From a virus (taxonomy: Duplodnaviria; Caudoviricetes): a DNA stretch of 63,794 nt. The notes under the pieces were generated by a model. The model worked only from the letters and a program-made list of their open reading frames with translations. It was not told the origin of the DNA and did not search any database. The stretch covers positions 1-63,794 of the IMG/VR virus record IMGVR_UViG_3300048061_000324. The stretch is one strand, 5' to 3'. Every line of letters begins with the position of its first letter. Position 1 is the stretch's first letter. This document shows positions 24,079 through 63,489 of the stretch, piece by piece. The translations under genes were made by a program, and so were the position numbers.

Positions 24079-24086
24079 TATTTATT
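24079..24086 (-). promoter_or_regulatory. Late promoter core (AATAAATA)
   Basis: Overlaps the stop of the giant gene, upstream of a tail fibre gene. Confidence 0.5.
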
Positions 24087-33000: not shown

Positions 33001-36000
33001 GCCTGGTAATAATTCGCCAGATATTTTATCTGCCATCTTATTATAGTTCCAAGTAAATTCATTACCACGCTCGTAACCATCGTGCGTACTCCAATCAATT
33101 CTATTTTTAATTGACCATTGTAAAAAATGTCTACTTAAAATTGACTGATATTCAGATCTACTATATCCAGTATCTCTCCAACGTCCAGGTTGTGTTTCGT
33201 GTATATTGAAAACATCTGGTTTGTATGTTGCTTTAATATTATTATAAATTCTTTTTTCTAATTCTAAGATAACATCATCTAAAACATCACCGTATGCTTT
33301 TGTTAAACTACCATCGTGTCCTTGAATAAAGTCGACGTTAGTTACATATGTATCGTCAGTATATTTAATTGGTTCGTATTTAGGATACATACCCATCTTA
33401 CTAGGTGTAGGCGGGATATAATTTCCTATAGTATTATTGTAATCTACAATTTTAATAACAGTAGCCAATGCAGGTTCGTTAACCATTTCAATAGCAGGTC
33501 TTGTTGCATTGAAAGTGTAATCTTTGCCTAGTACCGCTTGTACTCCATTAATGTAAACTAATACCGAACGATTTGTATTTGTTTTTGGATTAAAGGTAGA
33601 TCCCATTTGATAACTTTTGATTCTGTTATCTGTTACTGTGTATGTGTAATTCTTTTTATTTGTACCGTGTCCAACCATGTCGCTGTAGTAAAATGGAAAA
33701 GATGCACTTTTTGTACTATTAATACTTGCTAAAATTTTATCAACTGCTGTTGGTATATCTTCAAAGTCTAAGTCCAACGTTTCTGCCGCGGCAATAAACT
33801 TCTGTTTAAATTTTGTATATTCGTCTGAAGCATATTTTAATGCAGTTGTGACATTTAAATGATCTTCTTGTAAAAATATTCCAGGAAATACTAACCCACT
33901 TGAGTGATGTAAAATTTTACCTGCGTACTTTCCTGCATTGCCAATATCTCGTAAATTACCTGCTCCAGGATACACACCTGAAAATCCGTCAACAGTTTTA
34001 ATAATTTCGCTAACGTGCGAACGCATTTGTCCTAACGTAATGTCGCTAAAGTTTTTATTAAAAGCGTTGTTACTTAAATTGTTTGGAACCTCATAATATC
34101 CAAATGATGTTTGGTTATCAGATAATACTTTAATTGTTATTTGTGTTGAAACTGTTGGTGCAGTTGTAAATTCGATAATATGTCTTCCACTATCTAGTTT
34201 ATATTCCCAACCTGTTTTAATTTCTGTGCTATCTGTAAAAACAATAATTTCAGGTAGTTCTCCAACTGTTGGTGCAACACCTATTTCAAATTGTTTAGCA
34301 GTACCATTAGCAACGTATGTTACTACTTGATACTGTACACTTGGTGTATCAATCTTTTTCCAGCCATCAATGTAAGATACAGTTTTGTTACTATCTGTAA
34401 CTTTAATAAACCCTGTGCTTACGTTTAATGTTGAACTTCCTGTTGTTGCTGTATATGTAAATGTGTCTAAACTATATTTGTTGTCGAATACAATATCACC
34501 TATATTACTAAAGTTTTTATACTTTAAGTTAATACCTAATTCAGGATCTAATGTTGTTCCTGATCCTTTACCATATGCAAACAAAGATGTTCCTGCAAAA
34601 TTTGATGATTGGTAAGTAGTTTTATTAGTATAACTTTTACCATTGTTATCAAAGATGTCAAAAAGAGGTTCTTGGTTAACAAGTGTTTTTTGTTGACCTA
34701 CTACCCAGTTTGTTCCGTTGAACCAATATGTTTTACCTTTTAATTTTTCACCATCTTTAGCAACAACTTGGTCGCCATTAACTAATGATGTTGTACTTGG
34801 AATTAGTTTTACTTCTGATGTTCCATCATTTTGAAAGTCCACCATACTAACTGTAAATATTTTATTTTTAACTTCTAAATCTGTATCAGCAGTAAAAATA
34901 ACTTTCATTCCATTAGTTACTGCTTTACTATCAATAAAAAATGACGGGCCGTTGTTAATATTACTTAATGCATCAGTTGTAGTTGTATCAATTAAATCAA
35001 CAGAACCTGAACTCATGTTACCTGAGTTTAATAATGCAAGGTCTTTTTTAAATTCTATGATAGGACGTTTTGCTCTATTGTCTTGGTCAATAACTGCACT
35101 TTCGTTGTTATATCCTGCAATAGTAGTAATAACATCTTTATGGTACCAGTTATTATTTCTGGCCCATGCGTTACTATCAGCACTACCTACAGAACTAACT
35201 ATATAATCTTTTGTTTCGCTTGTTTCTAATTCGTATGCAACATGGTTGTCTTTTGGTACTAATCTAATTGATTCCCCAACACCGTCTACAATATATGTTT
35301 TGCTTCTGTAAGATATTGGACTTACCGTTGTATCAGTTTGTATATGCATACCATTAGAAAATACAACACCGTTAGGTGTAGTGTAATTCTTTTTACCAAT
35401 AATATCAGTAGTAACATCAATAATTTTTGTAGTAGAATCTAATAATTTAATTTCACCATATTTGCTACTGTCTGTAGGATCAACATAATAAAATGTACTC
35501 ATAGGTGCTGTAACGGCTGGTACTTCTAATAAAGTTGTACTATCAGATGATCTATAATATTCAAATGTACTAAAGTTTTCACCTTCTTGTATTTGTACTT
35601 TTTTATTAACTCCAATAAGTGTAACACCTTGCAAACTAATTGTTCCGCCACTTACTAAAATTCTAAATACTTGAAACTTCTCATCATTAGAAAATGTATT
35701 GGGCCATGCATTAGAAGTATTAACATCGGCATTGAAAATAACAGTTTTGTTTTCTAAATATAGTTGTCCGTCAATACCACCTGCATCCATTACAGTCTGT
35801 AAAGTTGCTCCGTTTAAACTTTCGTAAGTATATTCACTACATCTTAAATCAACATCAGAAACATTTACAACAGTTTTTGTAAAAAAGTTTTGGTCTGTTG
35901 ATTGAGGTACATTAAATGTAATTGTACCAGTTGATGTTCCGTTATTAATAACTCCATAAACATCTCTTGTAGTTCTATTGAAACTAACTGCACTTTTACC

Positions 36001-36615
36001 TGTAGTCCCTAATTCTGTTTGTATCCAAAAAGGATTAGTTTGGTCTACTGCAAAAGTATAACTACCACCACGTACTAGATAGATAGTTGGATTTTTTGTA
36101 GTTCCGTATGTTGGTGTAACTGAATACTTTTTTGCAGTACTAGTTACTGTAAAATCTTGTGTTGTTGGAACTTCAGCCGCTGTAACGTTAGCAGTACCTG
36201 GTCCACTTGGTAACCAATAGTATTCGCCAAAGTTAATTAATTTATCATAATTAACAAAGCCGTCCCAATTATAATACTCTTGGTCAAACAGTCTACTATG
36301 TTTGTTTGTTTTTCCGCCTGCTTCTTTAATAGAATTAAGCAAGTCATCATATGTAATTAATGTTTGTACTTCTTTTTTAATATCTTTATATACAACACTT
36401 GGCTCTAATTGATAAGATGTTCTATATTGTCCAACTGTTGTTAAGTATGGATCTTTGATAGAATAACTTGGCCCAAAGCGTCTCCCAACATAACCATCTA
36501 CTCTTTCTAAACTTTTAGAATTAAGTAACTGGTCAAGTGTTGAATGTAAGAACTTTTTGTTCTTATCTGTTTGTAACCACTTGGGTAGGAAGGATGCGGA
36601 TTTACGTTTTGCCAT
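24082..36615 (-). CDS. Giant (4177 aa) baseplate wedge/structural protein with FG-GAP-like beta-propeller repeats
   Basis: Follows gp6; repeated FG.SIAI...VGAP units around aa 2150-2650; GGTGY...GGGGSGA motif; repeated GDG/GDN..T.F modules. Confidence 0.8.
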   Translation of the reverse strand: MAKRKSASFLPKWLQTDKNKKFLHSTLDQLLNSKSLERVDGYVGRRFGPSYSIKDPYLTTVGQYRTSYQLEPSVVYKDIKKEVQTLITYDDLLNSIKEAGGKTNKHSRLFDQEYYNWDGFVNYDKLINFGEYYWLPSGPGTANVTAAEVPTTQDFTVTSTAKKYSVTPTYGTTKNPTIYLVRGGSYTFAVDQTNPFWIQTELGTTGKSAVSFNRTTRDVYGVINNGTSTGTITFNVPQSTDQNFFTKTVVNVSDVDLRCSEYTYESLNGATLQTVMDAGGIDGQLYLENKTVIFNADVNTSNAWPNTFSNDEKFQVFRILVSGGTISLQGVTLIGVNKKVQIQEGENFSTFEYYRSSDSTTLLEVPAVTAPMSTFYYVDPTDSSKYGEIKLLDSTTKIIDVTTDIIGKKNYTTPNGVVFSNGMHIQTDTTVSPISYRSKTYIVDGVGESIRLVPKDNHVAYELETSETKDYIVSSVGSADSNAWARNNNWYHKDVITTIAGYNNESAVIDQDNRAKRPIIEFKKDLALLNSGNMSSGSVDLIDTTTTDALSNINNGPSFFIDSKAVTNGMKVIFTADTDLEVKNKIFTVSMVDFQNDGTSEVKLIPSTTSLVNGDQVVAKDGEKLKGKTYWFNGTNWVVGQQKTLVNQEPLFDIFDNNGKSYTNKTTYQSSNFAGTSLFAYGKGSGTTLDPELGINLKYKNFSNIGDIVFDNKYSLDTFTYTATTGSSTLNVSTGFIKVTDSNKTVSYIDGWKKIDTPSVQYQVVTYVANGTAKQFEIGVAPTVGELPEIIVFTDSTEIKTGWEYKLDSGRHIIEFTTAPTVSTQITIKVLSDNQTSFGYYEVPNNLSNNAFNKNFSDITLGQMRSHVSEIIKTVDGFSGVYPGAGNLRDIGNAGKYAGKILHHSSGLVFPGIFLQEDHLNVTTALKYASDEYTKFKQKFIAAAETLDLDFEDIPTAVDKILASINSTKSASFPFYYSDMVGHGTNKKNYTYTVTDNRIKSYQMGSTFNPKTNTNRSVLVYINGVQAVLGKDYTFNATRPAIEMVNEPALATVIKIVDYNNTIGNYIPPTPSKMGMYPKYEPIKYTDDTYVTNVDFIQGHDGSLTKAYGDVLDDVILELEKRIYNNIKATYKPDVFNIHETQPGRWRDTGYSRSEYQSILSRHFLQWSIKNRIDWSTHDGYERGNEFTWNYNKMADKISGELLPGGWRQIYKHYYDTDRPHTHPWEMLGIDVKPTWWETQYGPAPYTSGNRVMWEDLRDGKIYDATTQTYTVNNLYKRADLLDMIPVNENGTLVSPWKSLATGSTVFELNDKWAVGDGGPAQAAWEKSSEFPFMKQIANAVMKPAKYFSLLFDTDKVIRTPITNNIVSVTTNKQLQRSDFETPLVDQNVINGYSFYVANHLNFLGVAPSVLKDIIDRVDINLAVKLSGYTDKKFLKVLAEQVSPNAISENVMIPDEDYELVVTKTSPIVSAPYSGVIVQQTDSGYAIYGYDTQNPVFNVIPSRQSRNINVHQVLDQRFIEYKDKEDSVLTVPYGTELSTPQQVFDFLVSYGRYLTSLGYDFANNSEQMAGGIEVANWTMAGKEFGYWVQQKWGTDAVITLSPSANRLTFRRADSMVDSLVNHYNGKSIMNQSFENLTVDKFKTTREDGEFEVTPEATVGGLYFANIKTVQYEHTLVLNNSTIFNDIIYQPELGNRQNRLKLVGWRTSDWDGSLTAQGFVLNQGKVDLWIQNTDYAKGEIIKNNDKLYTASETHTSGLTFDFDKWTPTDSFKLGLLPNWDTLGGDFESYYDVDTVNLESSADKFGKSVIGYQSRNYLENLGLDDTSQVKFYQGMIKEKGTSNAIDKLLRAKLDNTTSNIDMYEEWAVRVGEYGGLDINKRVELELKNDDINGNPTVLHSIDSIENKLEGVKNVLTEDFYKAPPEITPNWIPTNTTIGLQGDVLPYTGYAKITDADATLFNISSYENLNNSVSNMSIGYHLYVANDENLDWNFYYLDITKDVVLTAQASDNNTILWTTKEHHDILKDDLIVIKGFGAANGVHKVLRTTGLKSFETNEQSDALDVSGEATILKFRSIRYKTSSDLLGYTPVNGWKLNDKVFVDKVSDNGWKVFQKLNEYKAKTSLIPNNYAYTNGKMGNSIAINQDKSLGVFGYADYDAYGKLVVYIPNGQGDLAEAKVISPAQDNRFAGFGHSIDIKDNKFAVGSKTSVGCPEGNLHIYYQEGNQYNVSFAWAPPSITGTSKLNVKFSKDGSTLVAGAPGVDKVYVFKRATDTDTFTTTDSFTGDNTTTAFTTTANAEASIVTVDGVVQIQHEDVTVSGTTITFTTAPATSAEIRVKSGPGWELKATINGTASTEFGFAIDTDKTGDNIIIGAPAENTTYSNEGAVYVYSKYNSTGYSKTQKITTTLNNVDGRYGESVACNNTFTKLFAGAPGCNRFERASGLVTKIGLVSGPTKSHTGPEYTTTTSGSIVINGTTVSVNTKNVEDIATQINNASITNISASASNNKLTITSADKDNELIIVDISGNLFANVIGDQFGNVQNIVQNAKTDGQEFGKSIAIDTTGKVLVVGAPTSTYNAQMSFDTQGTDFDSSSTHFADATKRGGNVYAYQELDTSYIQTQKFTNTNIDADDLFGSALQVLDSNDIYIGMPNDDKSGSIIDSGQVAHYCSAKDIFVTHEQEQQLVDITKINRVFSYDKIKNEVINYYDWVDPIKGKIPGIADENIDYKTLWDPATYAIEGAHTWGPDQVGKIWWDLSTVKYVYAEQGDWAYRSSFWGSVFPGSSINVYQWVESDKVPSAYEGSGTVYSTSLYTTVSKIQGTVVKNRYFFWVKNVLDLAKNKTKSIKDVTDILIDPTTAELKYVAFTGSSDVSLYNFASELKNTGTVLVIDYDKTKNDKIIHNEWALIKENVADATLPTNFKRKLIDSLVGADSYGNSVPDPTLSASEQYGIQFRPRQSLFINRMSALKEFLTTVNTVMAKNTITLTKDITDLLAKDPEPKQASGDWDQRVSNNTELSYVRIKEKPVGYKVLVGTDTTVQNRWSIYSKRADNTWVLGKLQGYDVSNYWSYTDWYETNFSADTYIDYSIALKKDLVDVTPTVGQTVKVENGGNWELLYWNGTEYTTVGIKNATIQISEGIWNYTSTRYGFATEVFDFQLFDQEPQIETRKIVETILNKILIDDMALSANNTIFTMLYYVLDEQPFIDWLFKTSFIGVNHKIRALDDLPYYRKDNQTYVSEFIAEAKPYRTKIREYISNYNKTDPWTGDLTDFDINSYFDSNLGYYRKPDGSDSEDSVRLSTGFNKPWNDNYKHSIGSVAVTNGGTGYNFVPAVTITGGGGSGAKATATVESGVVTGIEITNKGTGYVSTPNVSIATSTGTTALGYAQLENLKARSIDTTMKFDRIKYTSEIIEWQANTSYTTGNKITYQGEVYTADENFTSGTTFTSDSLTVIADETFANAMDRTIAYYQPTDIQPAKELENLFYGIDYPGNKILGPGFDKQPGMDRAGFDDSPFDNFEIGAEGVPMISGVADTHISSRFGDSLLGTRPEDINIVGGKFVDQYNSHAPEEFVPGRVFDSLDMEIYQTPTSEYGGTDGLSPRIDVIKHTGDGNKTRFSFRTSDGHHNMNLLIYTTQTGKVQPDEYTLDFTTFEVVFNVAPVVGDIIDIVSLGNSGENMILDYVLTGDGVDAKYNLPISSSIAQQALVLVNGVKKDNQINNINSRAELEFTGGYKPTVGDHIHIFVFNLDPSVRIAYSHIGQEIFTMDGSTRTFTLANEPLYEGPVDAKIYVELAEERLRPAVYTYATGDGTLTNFALTDVADIDHATITASDVSVFIDGVSNSGWTLVDNSGTKEVQFSSAPSSGSKIAIGDNTNAEYTVSSTNITLASGLTITSGFKLNVTTFSSHNVLDMTTQTFKGASASAVILANGFDSAPFDGSTSFDVATTQIINTPTYTLYRTPSNANYLWVSKNGVRLSVEQDYEIEDGKLKLTTNIGNTDIIVISQFSENIIKQRVSWKVWQDILGQVRYYRLCEDNTTALATDLLRTDKEISVVDASKLATPNLNANIPGVIWIAGERIVYWEIDGNKLKNIHRGTMGTARAFRHYETDQVIDVSERQEIVDGHSKVWYTYGDTNTIQDQTSNQAKFLTECQGTVPLVGVTFDQSGRYIASGYVDDNYVQINE

Positions 36616-39600
36616 TAATAGCCAGAGCCTCCAGAACTAGTTGTATTAGTTGTACTTTGTGAAATGCTCGATGTTGTTGCTGTTCCAGTGTTAACTGTTC
36701 CAGTTGCTTTAATACCTGCGGCTGTAATTGCATCAATGATTGTAACATCATTAACTGTTGCCGCATTGGCAAATATTTCATCATGCTCACAACTTATTTG
36801 ATATAAACTACCAAACCCTTGTGAACTGTCATTAGGAACTAGTACTACACTGTTTAAGTACGGTGTAAGAGCTGAATGCAAGTATGCACTTAACTCTGAG
36901 AAATAAAATGTTTCTCCGAAGTCCCAATTTGAAACTTCAAAATATTCGTTTAATGCCGCTACTAGTTTTGACTTGATTTCACTATCACTAATACTAAAGC
37001 CTGGATTCTTAACTACTTTAAATGTTGCTTGTAGGTTTGATGTTGCTTTTGTACCAAATAATGGTTTAAATTTTGCACTGTGTAGAACAAGTGCGTCACT
37101 TAATGTTTTATAGCCTTCTAGTGTACCAAACTGCGAACGTAAACTATTAACTGTTGGTTTAGTTGGCTCTGTTACAGTACTTGTTGTATCTGTAATGTAT
37201 TGTGTATACGAGTCGCTATAATTTTTAGTTAATACAAATATATCAATAATATTACCTGGGCTCGGATCAATACGTCTGTCATTTGGTGCATTATGTGTAT
37301 AATGAAATTTAAGTCCGGCTCTGCCTGTATATACTTTGTAGTCTAAACTTTCAACTAGTGATTTAACATTATTGTTTTCTGTTACTACATAAAATTTATT
37401 ATCCGTTACTGCATACAATACTGAATTAGTAATTAAACTATTAATAACACTTTCAATATTTCCTTTTGTTGAGTAATCATGATTGATAACTGAATCTGCA
37501 ACTGTAACATATTTGTTAAAATTATCATAATCTGTTTGACGTTTTAAGAATACAAACTTTCGTAAATTGTTTGCTAGTGTAGTTGCTTCATCACCTACTA
37601 CTTCGTCAAATGCATTTGGATTATCAATAACACCGTCGTCATCGTTATCAGCAAACGTAACTAGGATTTTTGTATTGTCTTTGTATCCGTCTGTATCTGT
37701 TACAACGTCATAAACATTGAACGGAATATTTCTTACTAACGAAGTGTTTGCATCTGGTTTTGTATTAATACCTAAAACTTCAATATTATCTTTTTTACTT
37801 AATCCAGTTACTGGATCAAAAATCTTACTGGCTTTATCAAAGTAAAAACGTGTTTCTTCTACACTACTAAAGAAATATTCTAAACCTCTATATGCAACAT
37901 TGTAAATTGCTCCATCAGTTGTAAATTTAATCAACCAACTTGCATCTTTGTTTGTGTTTGTTTTATCTTTTGCAAAGGCATTGTCAAATGTATTTGATAC
38001 ACTAATATCTCTATTAGAAATAGTGTACCAAGTTCCTGCTAGGTGATCAAAGCCTAATGCAAAATTTTTATATTGTTTAATATTTGTAAACAGTTCACTT
38101 TCAATCACTGAAGGTAAATCAGAAACAAATGTTGGTAGTACTTTTGAAACTACTGCACCTGTTGGTACATTTTCGTTCAAACTCACTGCTCCTACAAATG
38201 CAGTAACTTTACCGTCGTTAACACCAATACCATTGTTGTTGATGCTAATAACACCTGCATATGCTTTATCTGTACTTCCTTTATGATTTGCACTACCTGA
38301 CATTAGTGTACCATTATCCATAAAGTGTTGATCTGCAGGTGCAGTAAATGTTACAAGTCCAGCATTTTTTAGATATTGTAAGTTATTACTACTTACACTG
38401 CCTACTTGTGCTACATTGTTTTCACTGTCGTTAAAGTAACCTGTACTTTTATTTGTTCCTACACTAACTCTTTGCCAAGTTGTATTAAGTGTACTAACGT
38501 CTACTTTACTAAAGTTTTTAAAATAAAAATGTTCCATTTCTTTACTTCTAAGAACTGGTTCAACTGTATTCCTAATTGCATCATAGATGTCATTATCATT
38601 AATCCAATTGAATGTTTTATTTTTTAAGAATTCGTTTTTATAAATTGCACCGTCATTAGAAAAAATGTTTGTACTAGAATATTTTCCAGTTACATCTTTA
38701 ATATCTAAAAATCTACTAATACCACTGCTTGTTCTATTCACACTTTTACTTTTAATAATATTGTTAAAGTTTGTTAATGGAAAAATATTATAATCTTCGC
38801 CATTAACCATTCTATTTTGTGTATAGTATTGTTGTGGTGCTTTTAGTTTAATATCTTCAATTGTATCTCTTGCTGTTGCATTGTCGATAGTATATTGTAA
38901 ACTTAAACCAACTGTTAAAGTTTCAACATTGCCCGTTCTACTTACATAAGGAATATCAATTTTAATTCCTCTAATATCATTAGGCTTAACTCTATATGTT
39001 CTTCCATTACTTACTCTGTGATAACTTCTAAAGTTACCAACCGGAATATCTGCAAATACGCCATCACCAAATAATAAATCAATTTGATCATTTGCTCTGC
39101 CGTTAATTGCATATAGTGAACGAACACTTTCACTTAAACTATTGTATATAACATTAGCACCTGTTACTGCTGGAACTTTTGTCCATTCTGTACTAACGTT
39201 TCCGTTATTGTCTAAATTAAATAACCAAACATCATCATTATTAATTCCGTTTTTATCAACTTCAACAATACGATTACTTAATGCGTTTTGTAAATTAAAT
39301 TCTACAGTTTCTAATGCACCTTGTTTAAAGTATACAAAGAAACCTGTGTTACTTGAACTTGCACCTTTACCATCTTGTCTATAAAACATATTAAATGTGT
39401 TACCTGGTTTAGGACTTTGTTCGTAAATAAATTCTTTATTTTGGAATGTTCCATTAACAACTTCAAACTTCATACTTTCTCCTGCCACATCAGCAGTGAA
39501 TGGCAATACTGGAATAGTATTCGGTAAAGTGTTAATTTCGTATAATTCTGTTTTGATATCGCTTAATGTTTTAGTTAATGCAGGATTTCCAAAACTTTGA

Positions 39601-40100
39601 GCACTTGACATTGCCGCATTCATTATTACTGCAAAATGTTCTAAGTAATCTGGGTTTGTACTATCATTGTATACAATGAAACTATCTGATAAGTTGCGTC
39701 CTGAACTATCATAAACATCTTCAGTTGTTTGTATGTTAGCAATTTTTAACATACCTCTTGCTGGCTGATTTCTTTTAGGTTGATAACTTAAAAGTTTTGC
39801 CAAACGTAATACACTGTCTCTTCTTTGTGCTGTCTCTAAAAAGTTTTCTCTAGAATTTAGATCTTGTCTAAATGCTAAACTTTGCCCAAAGTATGCAATC
39901 AAGTCCATTAGAGCTACAAACTCTGAACTTTCAATGTAATCGTTAAAATCTTCTGGGTAATTGTTGCGTAGGTACTGAACCATTGTCGAACGCAAAGTTT
40001 CATAGTCATAAGACTGGAAGTCTGCATCACGGAATGTCTGATAGATTTTAGTCCAATCTTCAGATACAAATAGACTATTTTGTCGCTTACTGGTGCTCAT
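36615..40100 (-). CDS. gp6: Baseplate wedge protein gp6-like
   Basis: DFQSYDYETLR, DYIESSEF, ENFLETAQRRDSVLRLAKLLSYQPKR, QNRMVNGEDY; next to gp25. Confidence 0.85.
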   Translation of the reverse strand: MSTSKRQNSLFVSEDWTKIYQTFRDADFQSYDYETLRSTMVQYLRNNYPEDFNDYIESSEFVALMDLIAYFGQSLAFRQDLNSRENFLETAQRRDSVLRLAKLLSYQPKRNQPARGMLKIANIQTTEDVYDSSGRNLSDSFIVYNDSTNPDYLEHFAVIMNAAMSSAQSFGNPALTKTLSDIKTELYEINTLPNTIPVLPFTADVAGESMKFEVVNGTFQNKEFIYEQSPKPGNTFNMFYRQDGKGASSSNTGFFVYFKQGALETVEFNLQNALSNRIVEVDKNGINNDDVWLFNLDNNGNVSTEWTKVPAVTGANVIYNSLSESVRSLYAINGRANDQIDLLFGDGVFADIPVGNFRSYHRVSNGRTYRVKPNDIRGIKIDIPYVSRTGNVETLTVGLSLQYTIDNATARDTIEDIKLKAPQQYYTQNRMVNGEDYNIFPLTNFNNIIKSKSVNRTSSGISRFLDIKDVTGKYSSTNIFSNDGAIYKNEFLKNKTFNWINDNDIYDAIRNTVEPVLRSKEMEHFYFKNFSKVDVSTLNTTWQRVSVGTNKSTGYFNDSENNVAQVGSVSSNNLQYLKNAGLVTFTAPADQHFMDNGTLMSGSANHKGSTDKAYAGVISINNNGIGVNDGKVTAFVGAVSLNENVPTGAVVSKVLPTFVSDLPSVIESELFTNIKQYKNFALGFDHLAGTWYTISNRDISVSNTFDNAFAKDKTNTNKDASWLIKFTTDGAIYNVAYRGLEYFFSSVEETRFYFDKASKIFDPVTGLSKKDNIEVLGINTKPDANTSLVRNIPFNVYDVVTDTDGYKDNTKILVTFADNDDDGVIDNPNAFDEVVGDEATTLANNLRKFVFLKRQTDYDNFNKYVTVADSVINHDYSTKGNIESVINSLITNSVLYAVTDNKFYVVTENNNVKSLVESLDYKVYTGRAGLKFHYTHNAPNDRRIDPSPGNIIDIFVLTKNYSDSYTQYITDTTSTVTEPTKPTVNSLRSQFGTLEGYKTLSDALVLHSAKFKPLFGTKATSNLQATFKVVKNPGFSISDSEIKSKLVAALNEYFEVSNWDFGETFYFSELSAYLHSALTPYLNSVVLVPNDSSQGFGSLYQISCEHDEIFANAATVNDVTIIDAITAAGIKATGTVNTGTATTSSISQSTTNTTSSGGSGY

Positions 40101-49004: not shown

Positions 49005-50774
49005 ATGTTTAAACTAAACAACTTAACTGTTAAGAATTTCATGAGTGTGGGTAACAGTACTCAGGCACTAGACTTTAACAGAAATGATTTAACACTTGTA
49101 CTAGGAGAGAACTTGGACACTGGAGGAGGTGACCATGGTGCTAGGAATGGTACAGGTAAAACTACTATCATTAATGCATTAAGTTTTGCATTGTACGGAA
49201 ATGCTTTAACAAATATTCGTAAAGATAATCTAGTAAACAAAACTAACGGCAAAAGTATGTTAGTTACTTGTGGATTTGAATATGGTGGAAAACAATATCG
49301 AGTAGAACGTGGCAGAAAGCCTAACGTACTAAAATTTTATGTAGATGGACAAGAACAAGAAGCATCAGATTCAGCACAAGGTGATAGTAGAGAAACACAA
49401 AAAGAAATAGAGATATTGTTGGGTATGAGCCATGAAATGTTTAAACACATTGTGGCACTGAATACATATACACAACCTTTCTTAAGTTTAAAACACAATG
49501 AACAAAGAGTTATTATCGAACAGTTGTTAGGTATAACATTATTAAGTGAAAAATCTGATCAACTAAAAGAACAGTTGCGTATTAATAAAGATTTAATTAC
49601 ACAAGAAGAATATAAAATTAAAGCAATTGGTGATGCTAATGAAAAAATTAGAGAACAGATTGACGCTCTTAAACGTAGAAGTAAGATGTGGTCAGATAAA
49701 AAGGTACAAGAATCTGGTCAATTACAAAAAGCATTAGATGATTTAACTCATGTTGATATCGATAACGAAATACAATCACACAACTTGCTAACAGAATATG
49801 TTGAAAAAGCAAGACAGTTTACAGATTTACAAGATCAACTTGCAAGACTTGTTAATGAATCAGATAGATATATTAAGAATCAAGCAAAATTAGAAAAAGA
49901 AGTTGAATCTTTAGAAGAGCATAAATGTTATGCTTGTGGACAAGAATTACATGATAATAAACATGAAGAAATACTTAAAGATAAAAAAGAATTATTAACT
50001 GAAGCAGTTTCTTTTATAGAAAACAGTAAAAAATCTGAAGAAGAACTGACATCTCAACTAGCAAGTATGGGAGATTTAGGCACAAAACCTGTTGTATTTT
50101 ATGACAAAATTGAAGATGCTTACAACCACAGGTCTAGTTTAGAGCAGTTAAAAAGTGAATTAACCAGCCTTCAAGCACAGGAAGATCCATATCTGGAACA
50201 GATTCAAGAAATGGAAGAACATGGAATTGAAGAGGTTAAGTACGATACAGTAAACGAATTAACTAGAGTTAAGGATCATCAAGATTTCTTGTTGAAACTT
50301 TTAACTAGTAAAGATTCGTTTATTCGTAAACGTATTATAGACCAAAATCTAGCATTCCTTAACAAGCGTCTTGCTTATTATTTGGAACGTATTGGATTAC
50401 CACATAGTGTTGTATTCCAAAATGATCTTACTGTAATAATTACGGAACTAGGACGGGAGTTAGATTTTGATAACCTAAGCAGAGGGGAACGTAACAGACT
50501 TATACTTTCTTTAAGTTGGGCGTTCAGAGATGTTTGGGAAAACTTATACCAGCCCATTAACTTGTTGTTTATTGATGAACTTGTTGACTCTGGTATGGAT
50601 AGCTCAGGTGTAGAAAATAGTCTGGCTATACTTAAAAAAATCAGTAGAGAACGTAAGAAGTCTGTTTGGCTTGTGTCACACAGAGACGAACTCGCTGGTC
50701 GGGTTAATAACATTTTATCCGTTATTAAAGAAAACGGATTTACTAGTTATAATACTGACATTGACGTTGTATAG
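49005..50774 (+). CDS. gp46: Recombination ATPase gp46 (Rad50/SbcC-like)
   Basis: NGTGKTT Walker A, CYAC zinc hook, LSRGE signature, LFIDE Walker B, VSH. Confidence 0.93.
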   Translation: MFKLNNLTVKNFMSVGNSTQALDFNRNDLTLVLGENLDTGGGDHGARNGTGKTTIINALSFALYGNALTNIRKDNLVNKTNGKSMLVTCGFEYGGKQYRVERGRKPNVLKFYVDGQEQEASDSAQGDSRETQKEIEILLGMSHEMFKHIVALNTYTQPFLSLKHNEQRVIIEQLLGITLLSEKSDQLKEQLRINKDLITQEEYKIKAIGDANEKIREQIDALKRRSKMWSDKKVQESGQLQKALDDLTHVDIDNEIQSHNLLTEYVEKARQFTDLQDQLARLVNESDRYIKNQAKLEKEVESLEEHKCYACGQELHDNKHEEILKDKKELLTEAVSFIENSKKSEEELTSQLASMGDLGTKPVVFYDKIEDAYNHRSSLEQLKSELTSLQAQEDPYLEQIQEMEEHGIEEVKYDTVNELTRVKDHQDFLLKLLTSKDSFIRKRIIDQNLAFLNKRLAYYLERIGLPHSVVFQNDLTVIITELGRELDFDNLSRGERNRLILSLSWAFRDVWENLYQPINLLFIDELVDSGMDSSGVENSLAILKKISRERKKSVWLVSHRDELAGRVNNILSVIKENGFTSYNTDIDVV

Positions 50775-50962: not shown

Positions 50963-52318
50963 ATGATTTCTATTACAAGATTATCTAATAATTTTGAAAT
51001 AGTTGATCTTATTACTGATACCCAGTTAGACAAAACAAAGTTAATGCGTTTTGCTTCTGGGTATCAGCAACTGTTCCGTAAACATAATCTAAAAAAAGGT
51101 GACAGAATTGGCCTTGCTCTGCAAGAAGACTTCCATCATCTTGCCTGTGTCTTCGCGGCAATTGATTATGGACTTATAATTGTTATAAGTGGTGAACATG
51201 AAATAACAGACAAATATATTTCTAGAAGACAAATAAAAGCATTTATATCACGGGGTGTACAACCTTGTACAGTTCATGCAACTAATGTTAATCATATTGA
51301 ATTAACAGAAGACGTTACTGAATCAAACAAAGATTACATTATCGATCATTCTGATATTTTAGTAGAAGCATTAACAAGTGGTAGTACTGGAGAACCTAAG
51401 TGTATTCAACATACACATTTTAGTGTAGAAAGTGCAACAGAAAATAGCATAAAACATTATTGGAAAGAAGCAGACACTAGTTGGTTTTTCCATAACATTG
51501 TACATTTAGGTGTAAGCAGTGTTTACTTTTTTCCTGCATTGTTTTCTAGTAAAAGAATTATTTTACCTCCGTTAGATAATCCATATGATGAAGTATTACT
51601 GTCTAAGTATAAACCAGACATAATGTTAATATTTCCATCACATTACCAAGAGTATTCTAAACAAGGAATACATTTAAGAGATTTAAGTCACGTTAAGTGG
51701 GTACTAACAGGCGGAAGTGTAATAGACCGTTCTTTTATTAGACGCATGATAAAAAATCAAGGCGTAGAAAAAGTTGCAGTAATATATGGACTTACTGAAT
51801 GTTTACCACCTTTAATACATAAAGTTGTTGACAAAGAAAATTTAGACTCGTATAATGTTAAAGAGATGGGTTACATCATCGACAGTACAGGAACATACGA
51901 TATTAACAAAGATGAAATACTTACAATTAAAGGTAGTAATCATTTATGTAAAAGTATAAACGACAAACCTGTAGATACATTTATTACTCAAGATGTTGTA
52001 AGTGCAGGTAGTGATTCATTTTTCTTTGAAAAACGTAATAGCGATTTAATAAGAATAAATGATACATTAATAAATCCACAACAACTAGTACCAAATTGGT
52101 TAGATGGTTATTGTTGTGTCTTTAGTACTTCACAGACACACGTTGTAGTGGTTATGCATCACAAAAAAGTAAATGTAAAAGAGTTGATTCAGAAATTAAC
52201 CGTTAACGGAATCAACCATGATAAATTAATTACGCCGATAAAACTTAATGTTCTCGGCAAACCAGATATCAATAAATTAAAGGGAATCTATGATAGGGCA
52301 AATAAGGGCACATCTTAA
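50963..52318 (+). CDS. Adenylate-forming (AMP-binding, acyl-CoA synthetase/A-domain-like) enzyme
   Basis: LKKGDRI, TSGSTGEPK P-loop, TGGS, YGLTE, TQD, R..DLI, terminal LGK. Confidence 0.85.
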   Translation: MISITRLSNNFEIVDLITDTQLDKTKLMRFASGYQQLFRKHNLKKGDRIGLALQEDFHHLACVFAAIDYGLIIVISGEHEITDKYISRRQIKAFISRGVQPCTVHATNVNHIELTEDVTESNKDYIIDHSDILVEALTSGSTGEPKCIQHTHFSVESATENSIKHYWKEADTSWFFHNIVHLGVSSVYFFPALFSSKRIILPPLDNPYDEVLLSKYKPDIMLIFPSHYQEYSKQGIHLRDLSHVKWVLTGGSVIDRSFIRRMIKNQGVEKVAVIYGLTECLPPLIHKVVDKENLDSYNVKEMGYIIDSTGTYDINKDEILTIKGSNHLCKSINDKPVDTFITQDVVSAGSDSFFFEKRNSDLIRINDTLINPQQLVPNWLDGYCCVFSTSQTHVVVVMHHKKVNVKELIQKLTVNGINHDKLITPIKLNVLGKPDINKLKGIYDRANKGTS

Positions 52319-52532
52319 AGAAGCCGGCAAATCGTATTTCGCACATACAAAATTTGCAATCGTGGCTGGCTTAGACTTGATACTAACCGGTATCATCAGC
52401 ATCATACACGGCATTGTTCCAACTCTGTTTCCTTTTTATGCAGAGAAAAAGATTGACGAATACCATCAAAAGGTGTTATTGTTAAACAAACATAGGAAGA
52501 AGAATGCCAAGCAAACAAAAAGCAAAAGGTAG
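52290..52532 (+). CDS. Small membrane-associated protein (DUF6356-like)
   Basis: HLKEAGKSYFAH...IIHGIVPTLF. Confidence 0.65.
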   Translation: MIGQIRAHLKEAGKSYFAHTKFAIVAGLDLILTGIISIIHGIVPTLFPFYAEKKIDEYHQKVLLLNKHRKKNAKQTKSKR

Positions 52533-53013
52533 TAATTGGGAAAGAGACGTTGCACGTTTCTTATCTGATCTATATCAGGAATCTTTTATTAGAGCACCTG
52601 GCTCAGGAGCCTATGTAGGCGGAACTAATACTGTCCGTAAAGAAGTATTACATGAAGGTCAAATACGTGGATTCAAAGGGGACATTGTTCCTGGACAATC
52701 ATTTCCAAAATTTAATGCAGAATGCAAATCGTATAAAGACTTTCCATTTCATCAACTGTTAACTTCAGACAAAGTTCGTATGCTGGAAGACTGGCTGGAC
52801 CAATTAATGGATGCGGCAGATGATGGTGACTTCAATATTTTAATAATGAAGTTTAACAACAAAGGCAAATTTGTAGCAACCCCCTCAACACATCAACTTA
52901 AAACAACACGACAATTCACATATCATTCCCCCAAGCACAACACATGGCTCATTACAGGCTTCGACGAATTTTGGCAAAGAAACGCAGACAGAGTTAAGAC
53001 TCTGTGTGCATAG
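52504..53013 (+). CDS. Hjc-like PD-(D/E)XK nuclease, putative Holliday junction resolvase
   Basis: KAKGSNWERDVA, RAPGSGA, GDI, AECK. Confidence 0.8.
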   Translation: MPSKQKAKGSNWERDVARFLSDLYQESFIRAPGSGAYVGGTNTVRKEVLHEGQIRGFKGDIVPGQSFPKFNAECKSYKDFPFHQLLTSDKVRMLEDWLDQLMDAADDGDFNILIMKFNNKGKFVATPSTHQLKTTRQFTYHSPKHNTWLITGFDEFWQRNADRVKTLCA

Positions 53014-53024
53014 GCAAATCATTT

Positions 53025-53390
53025 AGCACATAAGGTTAGCGGGCCAGTTTAATATACCGCTGTGGAAAAACTTATAGAGATATAAGACACGCAACACACT
53101 ATGAAACACGGCAGACCGTGAATGTCCATTCAAACAAATTGGGACGTGGATTGGTGTAGTACGAATGCTAACGTATGACAAACGCACATAACTCTTAAAA
53201 ACTGTAACGATAGGAACGAGGTTACAGACTGCTAACGCAGGATCAGTATAGGTTGGGAAAGGCTAGAGCCCATAGAGTTGCGATAAAATACCTATTTCCA
53301 ATAAAGTCTGGCTGGGGCGAACTCACATGAAGACAGGACGGAACCTTAAAAGTGGTTCCGTCTGACTGAAACAATCTACATGATGACTAT
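53025..53390 (+). ncRNA. Putative large structured non-coding RNA, family unknown; boundaries approximate
   Basis: ORF-free, GC-richer than flanks, at least 8 helices plus long-range pairings (see findings); strand favoured by a GAGA tetraloop and a G-U pair. Confidence 0.6.
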
Positions 53391-53455
53391 CGCTTCGCTC
53401 TTAACTTATATGTATTTCTAATTAAAAATAAACAACGAACGAAAGTGAAGTTGTT

Positions 53456-53478
53456 AGATGTACGAAGTACATCTTTTA
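53456..53478 (+). terminator. Hairpin with T-tract at the convergence point
   Basis: AGATGTAC-GAA-GTACATCT followed by TTT. Confidence 0.5.
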
Positions 53479-53489
53479 ATGTGAATCTA

Positions 53490-53678
53490 TTATAAGATAG
53501 GTAATCCAGTTTTATTAACTGTTTTAATATTCTCTTCGATAATATCGGCTATGTGTTTAGTGTCAGATCTCGACAACATATAAGCCTGATCTAAATTAAT
53601 ACCACCACGCATATACCATACGATTCGAGTAAGTTCTTTTTTTATAATTTGGGCTTCTTTGTCGTAGTCTTTAACCAT
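53490..53678 (-). CDS. gp51-like / 'T' segment of tail assembly chaperone, probably expressed by -1 frameshift from the upstream gene
   Basis: Frame stays open upstream of the ATG to the slippery site at 53720-53729; no clear SD; WYMRGG...AYML motif. Confidence 0.65.
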   Translation of the reverse strand: MVKDYDKEAQIIKKELTRIVWYMRGGINLDQAYMLSRSDTKHIADIIEENIKTVNKTGLPIL

Positions 53679-53713
53679 CTGTGCAATTTCTTCGTTGGCG
53701 AGACTCAGAAGCC

Positions 53714-54550
53714 TTATACGAAAAAATTTGCGTTATCGAATAATATTGGAGTCGACAACTCCGTTTCACAGTTAGAACACTTACCTTCAAATTGTTTAAA
53801 ACTGTTTTTATCTCTTTGTTGGTCTAGGTGATCTTGTACCGCTTTAAAAGTTTTTCTATCAACGTTTGATACAAACTCTGCAATATGATTTGGATCCTCT
53901 ACAACAACTCCATTAGACATTTCAATTTTACAAATTGTTTTTCCAATTAACCCTACTGTTAAGGCAGTAAGTCTTAAAAATGCATCTTGAAATAATTCAC
54001 GCTTCTTTTCATCGTCAATAGTTTCATTATTAACAATTTTCATAATTTTTGATTCTTCAAAATTACGCAAACTTTCAGCATTAATTTCTTTATAGTTTAA
54101 TGGTTGAAATGTAATTTTTAAATCACCTACTTCAAGTAAGTCGTCAAATTTCCAATTTTTAGTTTCATCCATTAAATGTGTTAAGTCAATTCCAAAATCA
54201 TTTTTGGTTTGACATTTAGGACAGCCGATGGTAATATCCATTTGCTCTCCATAAGTTGCAATACGAACGGCTATTAATAATGCGTCCATGTCGATACTAG
54301 GAACTTGCCAAGGATCCGAGATCGCTGGTACACAACTTCTTATTACTTCAACAGTACTAGCACCGTTGAGTAATGCATCTGGCGTTTTTAGGACTAACTC
54401 GTCCCTAGCAGTCATTGGGTAAATCCCAAGTTCGCCGTTAGGTGGCAAGTCTAAAACACCTTGTTTATAGTACTTTCCTTGACTAGGTAGTGCAATATAA
54501 ACTTCTGGTTTACGAAAATATCCCACTAAAGGGTTTTGATTGTTTTCCAT
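53714..54550 (-). CDS. gp26: Baseplate hub assembly / tail assembly chaperone, T4 gp26-like
   Basis: IALPSQG, PMTARDE, IDMDALLIAVRIATYG, two CxxC motifs, ends NFFV. Confidence 0.8.
   Translation of the reverse strand: MENNQNPLVGYFRKPEVYIALPSQGKYYKQGVLDLPPNGELGIYPMTARDELVLKTPDALLNGASTVEVIRSCVPAISDPWQVPSIDMDALLIAVRIATYGEQMDITIGCPKCQTKNDFGIDLTHLMDETKNWKFDDLLEVGDLKITFQPLNYKEINAESLRNFEESKIMKIVNNETIDDEKKRELFQDAFLRLTALTVGLIGKTICKIEMSNGVVVEDPNHIAEFVSNVDRKTFKAVQDHLDQQRDKNSFKQFEGKCSNCETELSTPILFDNANFFV
53720..53729 (-). other. Putative programmed -1 ribosomal frameshift site
   Basis: GCA AAT TTT TTC GTA TAA contains overlapping heptamers A_AAT_TTT and T_TTT_TTC. Confidence 0.65.
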
Positions 54551-62241: not shown

Positions 62242-63489
62242 ATGTCTGATATTTTAGCAGAAGGTCGTTGGGACAATACTAAAGAAGCCCTTTTAGATGG
62301 TTTACAAGGTACTCGTCGCAAGACAATGTCTACTATCCTGGAAAACACTAAACGCCACTTAACAGAAGCGGCAACTAGTGGCGCAACAGCGGCAGGTGGA
62401 GTAGCACAATTAAACAAAGTAATTTTACCCGTAATTAGACGTGTAATGCCTACAGTTATCGCAAACGAAATTGTTGGTGTACAGCCTATGCAAGGTCCAA
62501 TTGCTCAAATTCACACTTTAAGAGTTAAGTACAACTCTGCAAACACTATTAACCCGGCAAATGGTGCGGCTATCCAAGCAACAACAAATGACGGTACAAA
62601 CTTAGGTGCTGGTGACGAAGCGTTAGGTCCAAAGGACATAGCGGCTGGTTATTCAGGTACTGAAAGTGCGGCAGGTGTTAAAGCGGCAGGTACAACAGCA
62701 AGTGGATACTTAGAAGGTGTTCCAGGTAATACTCTTTCTATTGAAATTCTACGTCAAACAGTAGAAGCTCAAACTAGAAGATTATCAGCTCGTTGGACTT
62801 TTGAAGCGGCACAAGATGCTCAATCACAACAAGGTATCGATGTAGAAGCAGAAATCATGGCGGCATTAGCCCAAGAGATTACTGCTGAGATCGACCAAGA
62901 AGTTCTTGCAAGTTTAAGAGCTTTAGCGACTGCTGGTTCAACGGCTTTCGGTGCAAACACTGAAGCATACGACCAAGCGGCAGTTAGTGGTACAGCGACA
63001 TACGTGGGTGATGAACACGCGGCATTGGCTGTAGCAATTAACAGAGTATCTAACAAAATCGCACAGAGAACAAGACGTGGCGCAGGTAACTGGGCTGTTG
63101 TTTCTCCAACTGCATTAACAATGTTACAAAGTGCATCAACTTCAGCGTTCGCAAGAACAACTGAAGGTACTTTTGAAGCACCAACAAATACTAAATTTGT
63201 AGGTACTTTAAACAGTGCAATGAAAATCTACGTTGACAGTTATGCGGCTGATTCAGAAGCAGTTCTTGTTGGTTACAAAGGTAGTTCAGAAGCGGACGCG
63301 GCGGCATTCTATTGTCCTTACGTTCCACTAATGAGTTCAGGTGTAGTACTTGATCCAGCAACATTAGAGCCACTAGTAGGCTTTATGACACGTTACGGTT
63401 ACAGTGAACTTTCACAAACTAGTAGTTCACTTGGAAACGCGGCGGATTACGTTGGTAGAGTAACTATTGCTAACCCAACATTTAGTTAA
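62242..63489 (+). CDS. gp23: Major capsid protein gp23
   Basis: VIRRVMPTVIANEIVGVQPM, RRLSARWTFEAAQD, AEIDQE, FYCPYVPL, FMTRYG. Confidence 0.95.
   Translation: MSDILAEGRWDNTKEALLDGLQGTRRKTMSTILENTKRHLTEAATSGATAAGGVAQLNKVILPVIRRVMPTVIANEIVGVQPMQGPIAQIHTLRVKYNSANTINPANGAAIQATTNDGTNLGAGDEALGPKDIAAGYSGTESAAGVKAAGTTASGYLEGVPGNTLSIEILRQTVEAQTRRLSARWTFEAAQDAQSQQGIDVEAEIMAALAQEITAEIDQEVLASLRALATAGSTAFGANTEAYDQAAVSGTATYVGDEHAALAVAINRVSNKIAQRTRRGAGNWAVVSPTALTMLQSASTSAFARTTEGTFEAPTNTKFVGTLNSAMKIYVDSYAADSEAVLVGYKGSSEADAAAFYCPYVPLMSSGVVLDPATLEPLVGFMTRYGYSELSQTSSSLGNAADYVGRVTIANPTFS

Follow-up and report, generated by a model that had tools for sequence, protein, structure and literature searches.

Beside their recombinase gene, IS110 elements carry a bispecific guide, the bridge RNA, whose loops recognise two different DNAs. 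RNA II of ColE1, a structured molecule of several hundred nt, lies near replication functions on a mobile replicon. The RNA described here is encoded at 53014-53478 (+) of a 63,794-nt stretch of caudoviral DNA (IMG/VR record IMGVR_UViG_3300048061_000324; this whole stretch, a fragment of a virus record with a CheckV completeness of ~18%, is called the window below) and resembles both in part. With the bridge RNA it shares the logic only, that of a folded mobile-element RNA in which a conserved scaffold carries two variable single-stranded segments. In contrast to the bridge RNA, the two segments of the window RNA have the same sequence and no IS110-type gene lies nearby. The likeness to RNA II concerns structure, size and proximity to replication functions; RNA II is not known to carry twin elements, and no evidence was found in the window RNA for its RNA-DNA hybrid, RNase H processing or antisense regulator. 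GOLLD and ROOL are likewise large, many-helix orphan non-coding RNAs (ncRNAs), which occur mainly in phages, mobile elements and environmental sequences according to a recent report (bioRxiv 10.1101/2024.12.08.627333). The window RNA is smaller (~465 nt) and matches neither of these Rfam models in sequence or structure. We know of no matched twin elements in GOLLD or ROOL.

Comparative alignments make it very probable that 53014-53478 (+) is a real, conserved and pseudoknotted ncRNA, composed of a 5′ pseudoknotted core, a 3′ twin-element module, tail hairpins and a terminator. Its + strand folds better than shuffled sequences (z = -2.87, 1 of 100 shuffles being as good), whereas the signal of the - strand is weaker (z = -1.86, 7 of 100). 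A protein search with the nuclease encoded just upstream gave 80 viral loci, nine of which (L001-L009) carry, directly 3′ of that gene, a copy of the region recognisable by blastn. With RNAalifold, 16 of the 78 pairs predicted from a 7-sequence alignment vary on both sides, as do 26 of the 49 predicted from an alignment of 30 members of the window's clade. Helices were then counted on 30 distinct clade members (alignment A4) using a named structure that combines the helices of the original prediction with those of RNAalifold. Standard pairs fill 91.3% of its cells, compared to 78.3% after shuffling (0 of 500 shuffles reach 91.3%) and to 35-40% when partners are slid by 1-3 columns; both sides vary in 39 of the 76 tested pairs. 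G-U pairs are frequent and would be A-C mismatches on the opposite strand, which identifies the + strand as the RNA strand. The earlier description of a ribozyme-sized pseudoknotted ncRNA on this strand is thus borne out by covariation in the 7- and 30-sequence alignments and in the named structure.

Sequence conservation begins directly past the stop codon of the upstream gene. Hairpin P1 (UAGCGG...CCGCUG, 53037-53042 with 53057-53062) is 100% paired and three of its pairs vary on both sides. Strain variants of the same RNA, seen in contigs from three RNA-library runs, have A>G at 53038 and differ at 53052/53053, all within P1 and its loop. The GCC of the P1 loop may pair with the GGC at 53310-53312; this contact, proposed as GCCAG/CTGGC, is 85.3% paired, GCC and GGC being invariant. 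The long-range closing helix P2 (UGGAA/UUCCA, 53063-53067 with 53296-53300) is retained (94% paired) without covariation, no pair changing on both sides. In another subfamily, inspection by eye shows a helix analogous to P2 but different in sequence; two long-range helices have such counterparts there. Hairpin P3 (CTTATA/TATAAG, 53071-53086) varies on both sides in 5/5 pairs. Next, P4 (53096-53101 with 53152-53157; 97.8% paired, three pairs varying on both sides) encloses the inner hairpin CACGG/CCGTG (53107-53120; 4/5 pairs) and a variable insert, a segment missing from many clade members, in which the proposed GTCC/GGAC helix is located. Hairpin P5 (GUACG...CGUAU, 53159-53176) is 99.3% paired and varies on both sides in 4/5 pairs.

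A junction helix ACUCU/AGAGU (proposed as AACTCT/AGAGT; 53191-53195 with 53274-53278), with 5/5 pairs varying on both sides, encloses P6 (CTGTAAC/GTTACAG, 53202-53227; again 5/5 pairs), P7 (53229-53240) and P9 (GGG/CCC, 53255-53257 with 53269-53271), the last two supported in the 30-member count. P8 (AUAGGU/ACCUAU, proposed as ATAGGT/ACCTAT; 53248-53253 with 53290-53295; 99.4% paired, three pairs varying on both sides) crosses the junction helix and is therefore a true pseudoknot. Hairpin b (GGACGGAACC...GGUUCCGUCU, 53336-53363; proposed as GACGGAACC/GGTTCCGTC), located between the twin elements, is 97.3% paired; all its changes within the clade are one-sided, and between clades it is replaced by other complementary sequences. 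Seven of the ten helices drawn in the original prediction are thereby supported. The long-range GTGGATTG/CAATCTAC is not: it is 58.2% paired and its 5′ strand overlaps the better-supported P4.

The 3′ module carries two nearly identical elements, X (A-A-CUC-ACAUGAA-G-A, 53320-53333) and X′ (A-A-UCU-ACAUGAU-G-A, 53373-53386), each preceded by a UGAC-type motif. X is placed in the loop of stem a (GUCU/AGAC, 53307-53310 with 53331-53334), which was read from the sequence and whose equivalents covary, by eye, in other members. The central parts of the two elements read ACTCACATGA (53321-53330) and ATCTACATGA (53374-53383), with hairpin b between them, and the whole window contains exactly two AYYYACATGA sites, X and X′. 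The same module is common to all subfamilies, with X as A-CUC-N7 and X′ as A-UCU-N7, 50-72 nt apart around a stable hairpin. Scanning with the pattern ACTCRSATGA-N30-60-ATCTRSATGA gave at least 120 viral stretches, and the large family that shares the module comprises at least 160 viral contigs and an integrative element of Rhodobacteraceae.

The sequence of X/X′ differs among lineages yet is matched within each RNA. X and X′ share their free dinucleotide at 162 of 167 loci (AC/AC 62, AG/AG 57, GG/GG 38, GC/GC 3 and an AGAUAA variant 2), and close relatives change in concert, as L025 (AG/AG) versus L031 (GG/GG). Among 143 unique members, X and X′ are identical at positions +4 to +10 in 136-143, at +12 in 98 and at -1 in 89; at +11, X has G where X′ has A in 82 members, and both have G in 39. 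The two elements differ mostly by transitions, with C/U exchanges at three positions in a row and a G/A exchange at +11. Matched elements of quite different sequence are also present in subfamilies reached without the pattern, namely ACUC-GACGAA / AUCU-GACGAA, ACUC-GUCGGAA / AUCU-GUCGGAA and a third pair, ...UCU-AAAUCAAG / UCU-UAAUCAAG.

Past X′ lies tail hairpin A (53431-53455), with a stem AACAAC/GUUGUU and a loop GAACGAAAGUGAA. The motif GARCGNNAGYGA occurs at most 200 nt past X′ in 93 of 145 unique loci, compared to 0 of 139 control windows. The window's loop, GAACGAAAGTGAA at 53437-53449, fits the family tail loop GARCG-NNA-GYGAA, a sequence suggestive of tandem G-A pairs, a 2-bp mini-stem and a GNRA-type tetraloop (GAAA in the window). 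An intrinsic-terminator-like hairpin with a CGAAG loop and a T run follows (53456-53478); the end of the T run is taken as the 3′ limit of the RNA. Tail hairpin and terminator of the family anatomy are thus both present in the window.

Several known arrangements were tried on this module and rejected. Judged by eye, kink-turn, box C/D-like and hammerhead-like readings of GAUGA/UGAC and tail hairpin A fail on registers that are not conserved and have no Rfam match. Type III antitoxin repeats or a CRISPR mini-array would require near-identical units in tandem; the ~27-nt units resemble each other only in part, with conserved differences, a conserved hairpin takes the place of the 'spacer', and no Rfam CRISPR repeat matches the region at E up to 10. 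Mutual pairing of X with X′ through RGAU:AUCU (4 bp) is possible in 60/60 sequences outside the window's clade, in columns that are invariant, with a fifth pair in 26/60; this register is broken by C opposite C in the window clade and does not hold in L010 either. A CAUG:CAUG pairing of X with X′, predicted in the window clade, is lost in the 30-sequence consensus.

The region does not behave as a protein-coding gene. Positions 53014-53713 form the window's longest gap between open reading frames (ORFs) of at least 100 aa, and GC content is 0.41-0.45 in the RNA region compared to 0.26-0.40 in most flanking bins, so the stretch is ORF-free and GC-richer as first reported. No + strand ORF of at least 30 aa is found in 53014-53489. 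A conserved short ORF, set beforehand as the observation that would speak against an RNA, was looked for and none was found, nor was any conservation of a peptide frame across family members in the RNA region. Translation from the AUG inside X would stop at the UGA before X′ in 47 of 141 sequences, earlier in 55, at the UGA of X′ in 14 and elsewhere in 25 (19 past X′, 6 other), and the X-X′ distance modulo 3 (38, 50 and 53) shows no phase preference. With no + strand ORF leading in and no phase preference, a peptide gene was rejected. A translational bypass of the T4 gene 60 type, in which the ORF would have to continue from a matched landing codon, was rejected as well: a matched triplet followed by UGA is present at both twin sites, the second as well as the first, and no ORF of at least 30 aa leads in.

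Known RNA families were searched with Infernal and Rfam 15, as had been suggested. At gathering thresholds, the whole window gives a single match, the glutamine riboswitch RF01739 (63581-63633), and at E up to 10 on 52900-53800 nothing matches in 53014-53480. ARAGORN finds no tRNA or tmRNA; together with Rfam 15, this agrees with the reported lack of any tRNA, tmRNA, RNase P or group I/II intron hallmark. Known self-cleaving ribozymes, GOLLD, ROOL and HEARO have no Rfam match in the region at E up to 10. The riboswitch aptamer (+ strand, 54.6 bits for a gathering threshold of 35) is located near the end of the fragment, directly past an ORF at 62242-63489.

A known motif was found in relatives of the window RNA. 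In 3 of 9 loci scanned (L016, L017 and L061) the first ~135 nt match RF01718, Polynucleobacter-1, with 101-120 bits compared to a gathering threshold of 37; no Rfam family besides this one matches any of the members scanned. These three RNAs possess a 3′ twin-element module, a tail hairpin and a genomic position like those of the window. The window RNA itself falls outside RF01718, both at the gathering threshold and at E up to 10. In the table of Weinberg et al. (2010), Polynucleobacter-1 is entered as a probable RNA, probably cis-regulatory, with no function given, from Burkholderiales and fresh water or estuary (PMC2864571). The RF01718 model is limited to a 5′ piece of 141 positions. Judged from these model matches, one subfamily has the RF01718 motif as the 5′ part of a longer RNA; the 3′ module, as well as the pseudoknotted core of the window clade and the phage context, apparently lie outside its description, as far as the published table goes. 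No description of the full-length RNA or of the 3′ module, and no closer structured phage RNA, was found in a literature search. The word 'undescribed' thus holds for these, though not for the 5′ third of one subfamily, which is RF01718.

For family membership we built a covariance model of the 3′ module (R1, 85 positions) from 60 sequences of other clades, excluding that of the window; its E-values are rough. It has a single match in the window, over its full length, at 53303-53386 (+) (22.2 bits, E 0.025 over 273 kb), and it matches 52 of the 80 nuclease-selected loci at E up to 0.1. The window RNA is probably a new clade of a widespread family of phage and mobile-element RNAs. Eight of the nuclease-selected loci (L038, L042, L058, L060, L064 and L074-L076) have ORF-free gaps of ~550-755 nt between the nuclease gene and gp26 without a model R1 match; these gaps could contain an RNA that is more diverged or of another kind. 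By blastn, the window RNA and three other family members have no match in 50,697 phage records. Among the nearest named phages by nuclease and gp46 (SCTP-2, the PA5oct group, Phosso and Atu_ph07), the region is missing at the two loci inspected.

The wobble-compatible differences between X and X′ speak for recognition at the RNA level by one complement and against mutual pairing, a protein site or a DNA iteron. The explanation we prefer, tentatively and at somewhat less than an even chance, is a trans-acting RNA whose matched twin elements recognise one common nucleic-acid partner, the folded core acting as scaffold. The RNA would be a stand-alone structured ncRNA of ~465 nt, transcribed by read-through from the upstream operon or from another promoter and ending at the terminator. 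Its 5′ core would be the scaffold and X/X′ the business end, two copies of a lineage-specific ~14-nt element that are identical save wobble-compatible transitions (CUC versus UCU, G versus A). Both could pair with one complementary sequence of the form 5′-..U-N7′-GGG-U..-3′: the partner strand would place G opposite the pyrimidines and U opposite the purines, and wobble would allow both elements. Such an RNA might hold a pair of copies of one nucleic-acid target, or else bind a single target at its two sites by turns. A bolder form of this proposal, which we hold to be rather unlikely, is a new class of bivalent programmable RNA on phages and integrative elements, with the pseudoknotted scaffold presenting two copies of a freely evolving ~14-nt guide-like element. 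If this were true, the RNA would seize two targets of the same sequence, for instance two sites or two molecules of DNA or RNA, and join them or pass one on to the other. It would then be a natural RNA that bridges identical sequences during recombination, replication or takeover of the host.

A number of observations weigh against a trans-acting RNA with a shared partner. Searched in cis, complements of at least 6 nt are only G-U-rich and in inconsistent places; the GGAUG/CAUCC hairpin of the Rhodobacteraceae RNAs shows no covariation with X by eye. Searched in trans, no partner is found elsewhere in the 63.8-kb window. In three larger incomplete phage records, two candidate sites were found, both on the strand of the RNA and about 43-45 kb from it: G407:C1:143804-143816 (-) is an exact 13-nt complement of that genome's own twin element, and G405:C1:192846-192859 (+) a wobble-perfect 14-nt complement of its own, each with GGG opposite CUC/UCU. 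These are probably chance, because their flanks are non-homologous and they lie inside unrelated ORFs. The elements are not predicted to be especially accessible: in predicted ensembles, the mean unpaired probability is 0.46 for X and 0.42 for X′ versus 0.42 for the rest, and in the window RNA X and X′ are predicted to pair together (0.23 and 0.24). Concerning the family-wide pattern, the CUC/UCU contrast is imposed by the search pattern in most of the sample, its pattern-free support consists of three sequence types in seven loci, and the sequences are related, so that matched positions cannot be counted as independent events. Sequence profiles failed to connect the 5′ cores between clades: a 7-sequence profile reached other clades weakly and in the 3′ module only, a 30-sequence clade profile did the same in 2 of 87 targets, and neither linked the 5′ cores. 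The window clade is placed in the family by a weak model score (E 0.025), common anatomy and common position.

Transcription belongs to the same account. Contigs from 4/4 metatranscriptome runs, which come from four studies and have habitat labels marine, seawater or estuary, cover parts of the RNA region, some bins being without cover. The proposed metatranscriptome check thus gives coverage; RNA-library contigs cannot show a discrete transcript, nor ends, strand or level, and DNA carry-over is possible.

The elements could instead be twin binding sites for a protein, which we consider unlikely. One sequence-specific, co-evolving protein, as a dimer or two protomers, would occupy sites positioned by the core, the RNA being an RNP scaffold or a sponge. 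Iterons and operators are likewise matched within a genome and different between lineages, a conserved UGAC-type motif precedes each element, no nucleic-acid partner was found in cis or in the window, and a small conserved convergent ORF is located just downstream. Yet it is not obvious why a protein would accept just C/U and G/A exchanges, with three in succession, when the rest is identical, and the phage and Rhodobacteraceae contexts have no conserved candidate protein in common.

The genes around the RNA bear on the remaining explanations. Neighbours were counted at loci found through the RNA motif alone, 84 of them assessable among the at least 120 matches listed. The C-terminal part of gp46 lies at most 4 kb upstream on the same strand in 73/84, a small convergent ORF of 62-72 aa follows downstream in 70/84, convergent gp26 is found downstream in 72/84, and a PDDEXK_15 nuclease is upstream in 7/84; an earlier count with other limits gave 8/92 for the nuclease and 63/91 for gp26. 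The window conforms to the family position, with gp46 upstream on the same strand and the small ORF and gp26 convergent, four extra ORFs, the nuclease included, being inserted between gp46 and the RNA. The counts for gp46 and the nuclease indicate that the RNA marks the end of the gp47-gp46 block, and the adjacency of the nuclease is incidental. A PD-(D/E)XK nuclease gene is indeed directly upstream, as reported (52504-53013, +; PF24608, E 1.1e-23). Adjacency in the window and in 52 of the 80 nuclease-selected loci had made the RNA a conceivable guide or scaffold for this enzyme. We now regard that idea as very improbable: the motif-selected loci do not support it, the related nucleases of SCTP-2 and PA5oct have no such adjoining region, and the family is annotated as of Holliday-junction resolvase type.

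The same position invites a cis-acting role as the 3′ element of the upstream operon, whether as a 3′ untranslated region protecting the mRNA against 3′ exonucleases, an insulator against convergent transcription or a regulator of the upstream genes. The RNA sits at the end of an operon, directly past a stop codon, carries terminator hairpins and is convergent to the late genes; Polynucleobacter-1 was rated probably cis-regulatory in the 2010 table (PMC2864571). A pseudoknotted core of ~350 nt with matched twins far exceeds what a terminator or stabiliser needs, however, and the upstream gene varies between members (gp46-side ORFs, the nuclease, other inserts, unrelated genes in Rhodobacteraceae), which argues against regulation of one particular gene. 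A cis-acting element is on balance improbable.

Outside phages, a pattern scan of bacterial and archaeal genome contigs gave 119 matches, in a collection where several hundred chance matches are expected by our own estimate, and eight passed extra filters. Two of the eight are phage-like contigs binned into metagenome-assembled genomes (MAGs), with gp46 and gp26. The other six are from Rhodobacteraceae, titled Nereida ignava, Rhodovulum bhavnagarense, Roseicyclus, Ascidiaceihabitans and a Rhodobacter MAG, and share the module and the tail hairpin, with model R1 E-values of 2e-7 to 6e-6. There the RNA is part of an integrative element that measures at least 10.5 kb and has the order ParB-like gene, clamp-loader-like AAA+ ATPase, two proteins of 263 and 244 aa without family match, RNA, galU fragment and two border tyrosine recombinases of 188 and 509 aa. 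Copies L332, L333 and L334 (genomes G238 and G201) are 95-99% identical. The element is sporadic, the motif being present in 3 of 401 sampled Rhodobacteraceae genomes, and it can occur more than once per genome: one isolate assembly contains three copies, and G238 has two at a distance of 38.5 kb. Searched for defence systems with PADLOC, its neighbours gave Walker-motif-level matches only, and those of the window nothing useful.

These surroundings bring replication to mind, with the RNA serving as primer or as origin RNA, much like RNA II of ColE1, or with the region being an origin in which the repeats act as DNA iterons. In phages the RNA follows the recombination and replication genes gp47-gp46, in Rhodobacteraceae it follows the clamp-loader-like ATPase in an element with a ParB-like gene, and lineage-specific, genome-identical repeats are typical of iterons. 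Iteron-type origins have several, usually three or more, direct repeats beside an A+T-rich region and an initiator gene. No such arrangement is found in the window: just two repeat copies occur in its 63.8 kb, the stretch between them is a G+C-rich hairpin and not an A+T-rich unwinding region, and an initiator gene was not recognised. To an initiator that binds DNA, the three C/U exchanges would present three mismatches, and strong covariation at the RNA level, with G-U pairs, is needless for a DNA origin. We judge a replication role improbable as well.

Direct repeats that stay identical irrespective of their sequence are also the signature of realignment sites, of which retroviral R repeats and telomerase template ends are examples. 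X and X′ could accordingly be donor and acceptor sites of strand transfer or realignment, by template switching of a polymerase copying the RNA, by excision of hairpin b from RNA or DNA, or by self-processing of a ribozyme at both equal sites. The short spacing of 50-72 nt around a stable hairpin fits such a role, as do the tyrosine recombinase genes near the Rhodobacteraceae copies. Against it, contigs of the four RNA runs contain no X-X′ joints, and one of them (53161-53405) spans both elements unbroken; a reverse transcriptase (PF00078) was not found in the window, which spans ~18% of the genome as estimated; none of the known self-cleaving ribozyme families matches; and the lasting CUC versus UCU difference is not needed for realignment. 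We think strand transfer quite improbable.

The gene content of the window is of the T4-like or giant myophage type. The gp46/SbcC-like gene lies at 49005-50774 (+), and the nearest named relatives of gp46 and the nuclease belong to the PA5oct group, Phosso, Atu_ph07 and SCTP-2, with 37-50% identity. Between gp46 and the RNA are inserted genes for a phage-borne AMP-binding (adenylate-forming) enzyme (50963-52318, +; PF00501, E 1.2e-26) and a DUF6356 protein (52290-52532, +), which are missing at most relatives' loci. On the - strand, the small ORF of 62 aa (53490-53678) separates the RNA from the gene for the baseplate hub gp26 (53714-54550). A tape-measure-like protein is also encoded in the window, and a single ORF of 4177 aa (24082-36615, -), next to which lies an ORF of 1161 aa (36615-40100), fits a giant phage.

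Large structured RNAs of bacteria and phages to which no function is assigned are rare and have repeatedly led to new biochemistry. Here, an orphan 141-nt Rfam motif becomes the 5′ piece of an RNA of ~400-480 nt that is common in uncultured aquatic giant phages and is subject to an unusual constraint: its two elements may take any sequence provided that they match. Because the same RNA is present in cultured, harmless isolates of Rhodobacteraceae, among them Rhodovulum bhavnagarense DSM 24766 and Nereida ignava CECT 5292 by their titles, it is open to genetics and biochemistry. Should the twin elements prove to be guides, this would be a new kind of programmable RNA; otherwise, the window RNA would stand as a well-supported new clade of an orphan RNA family.

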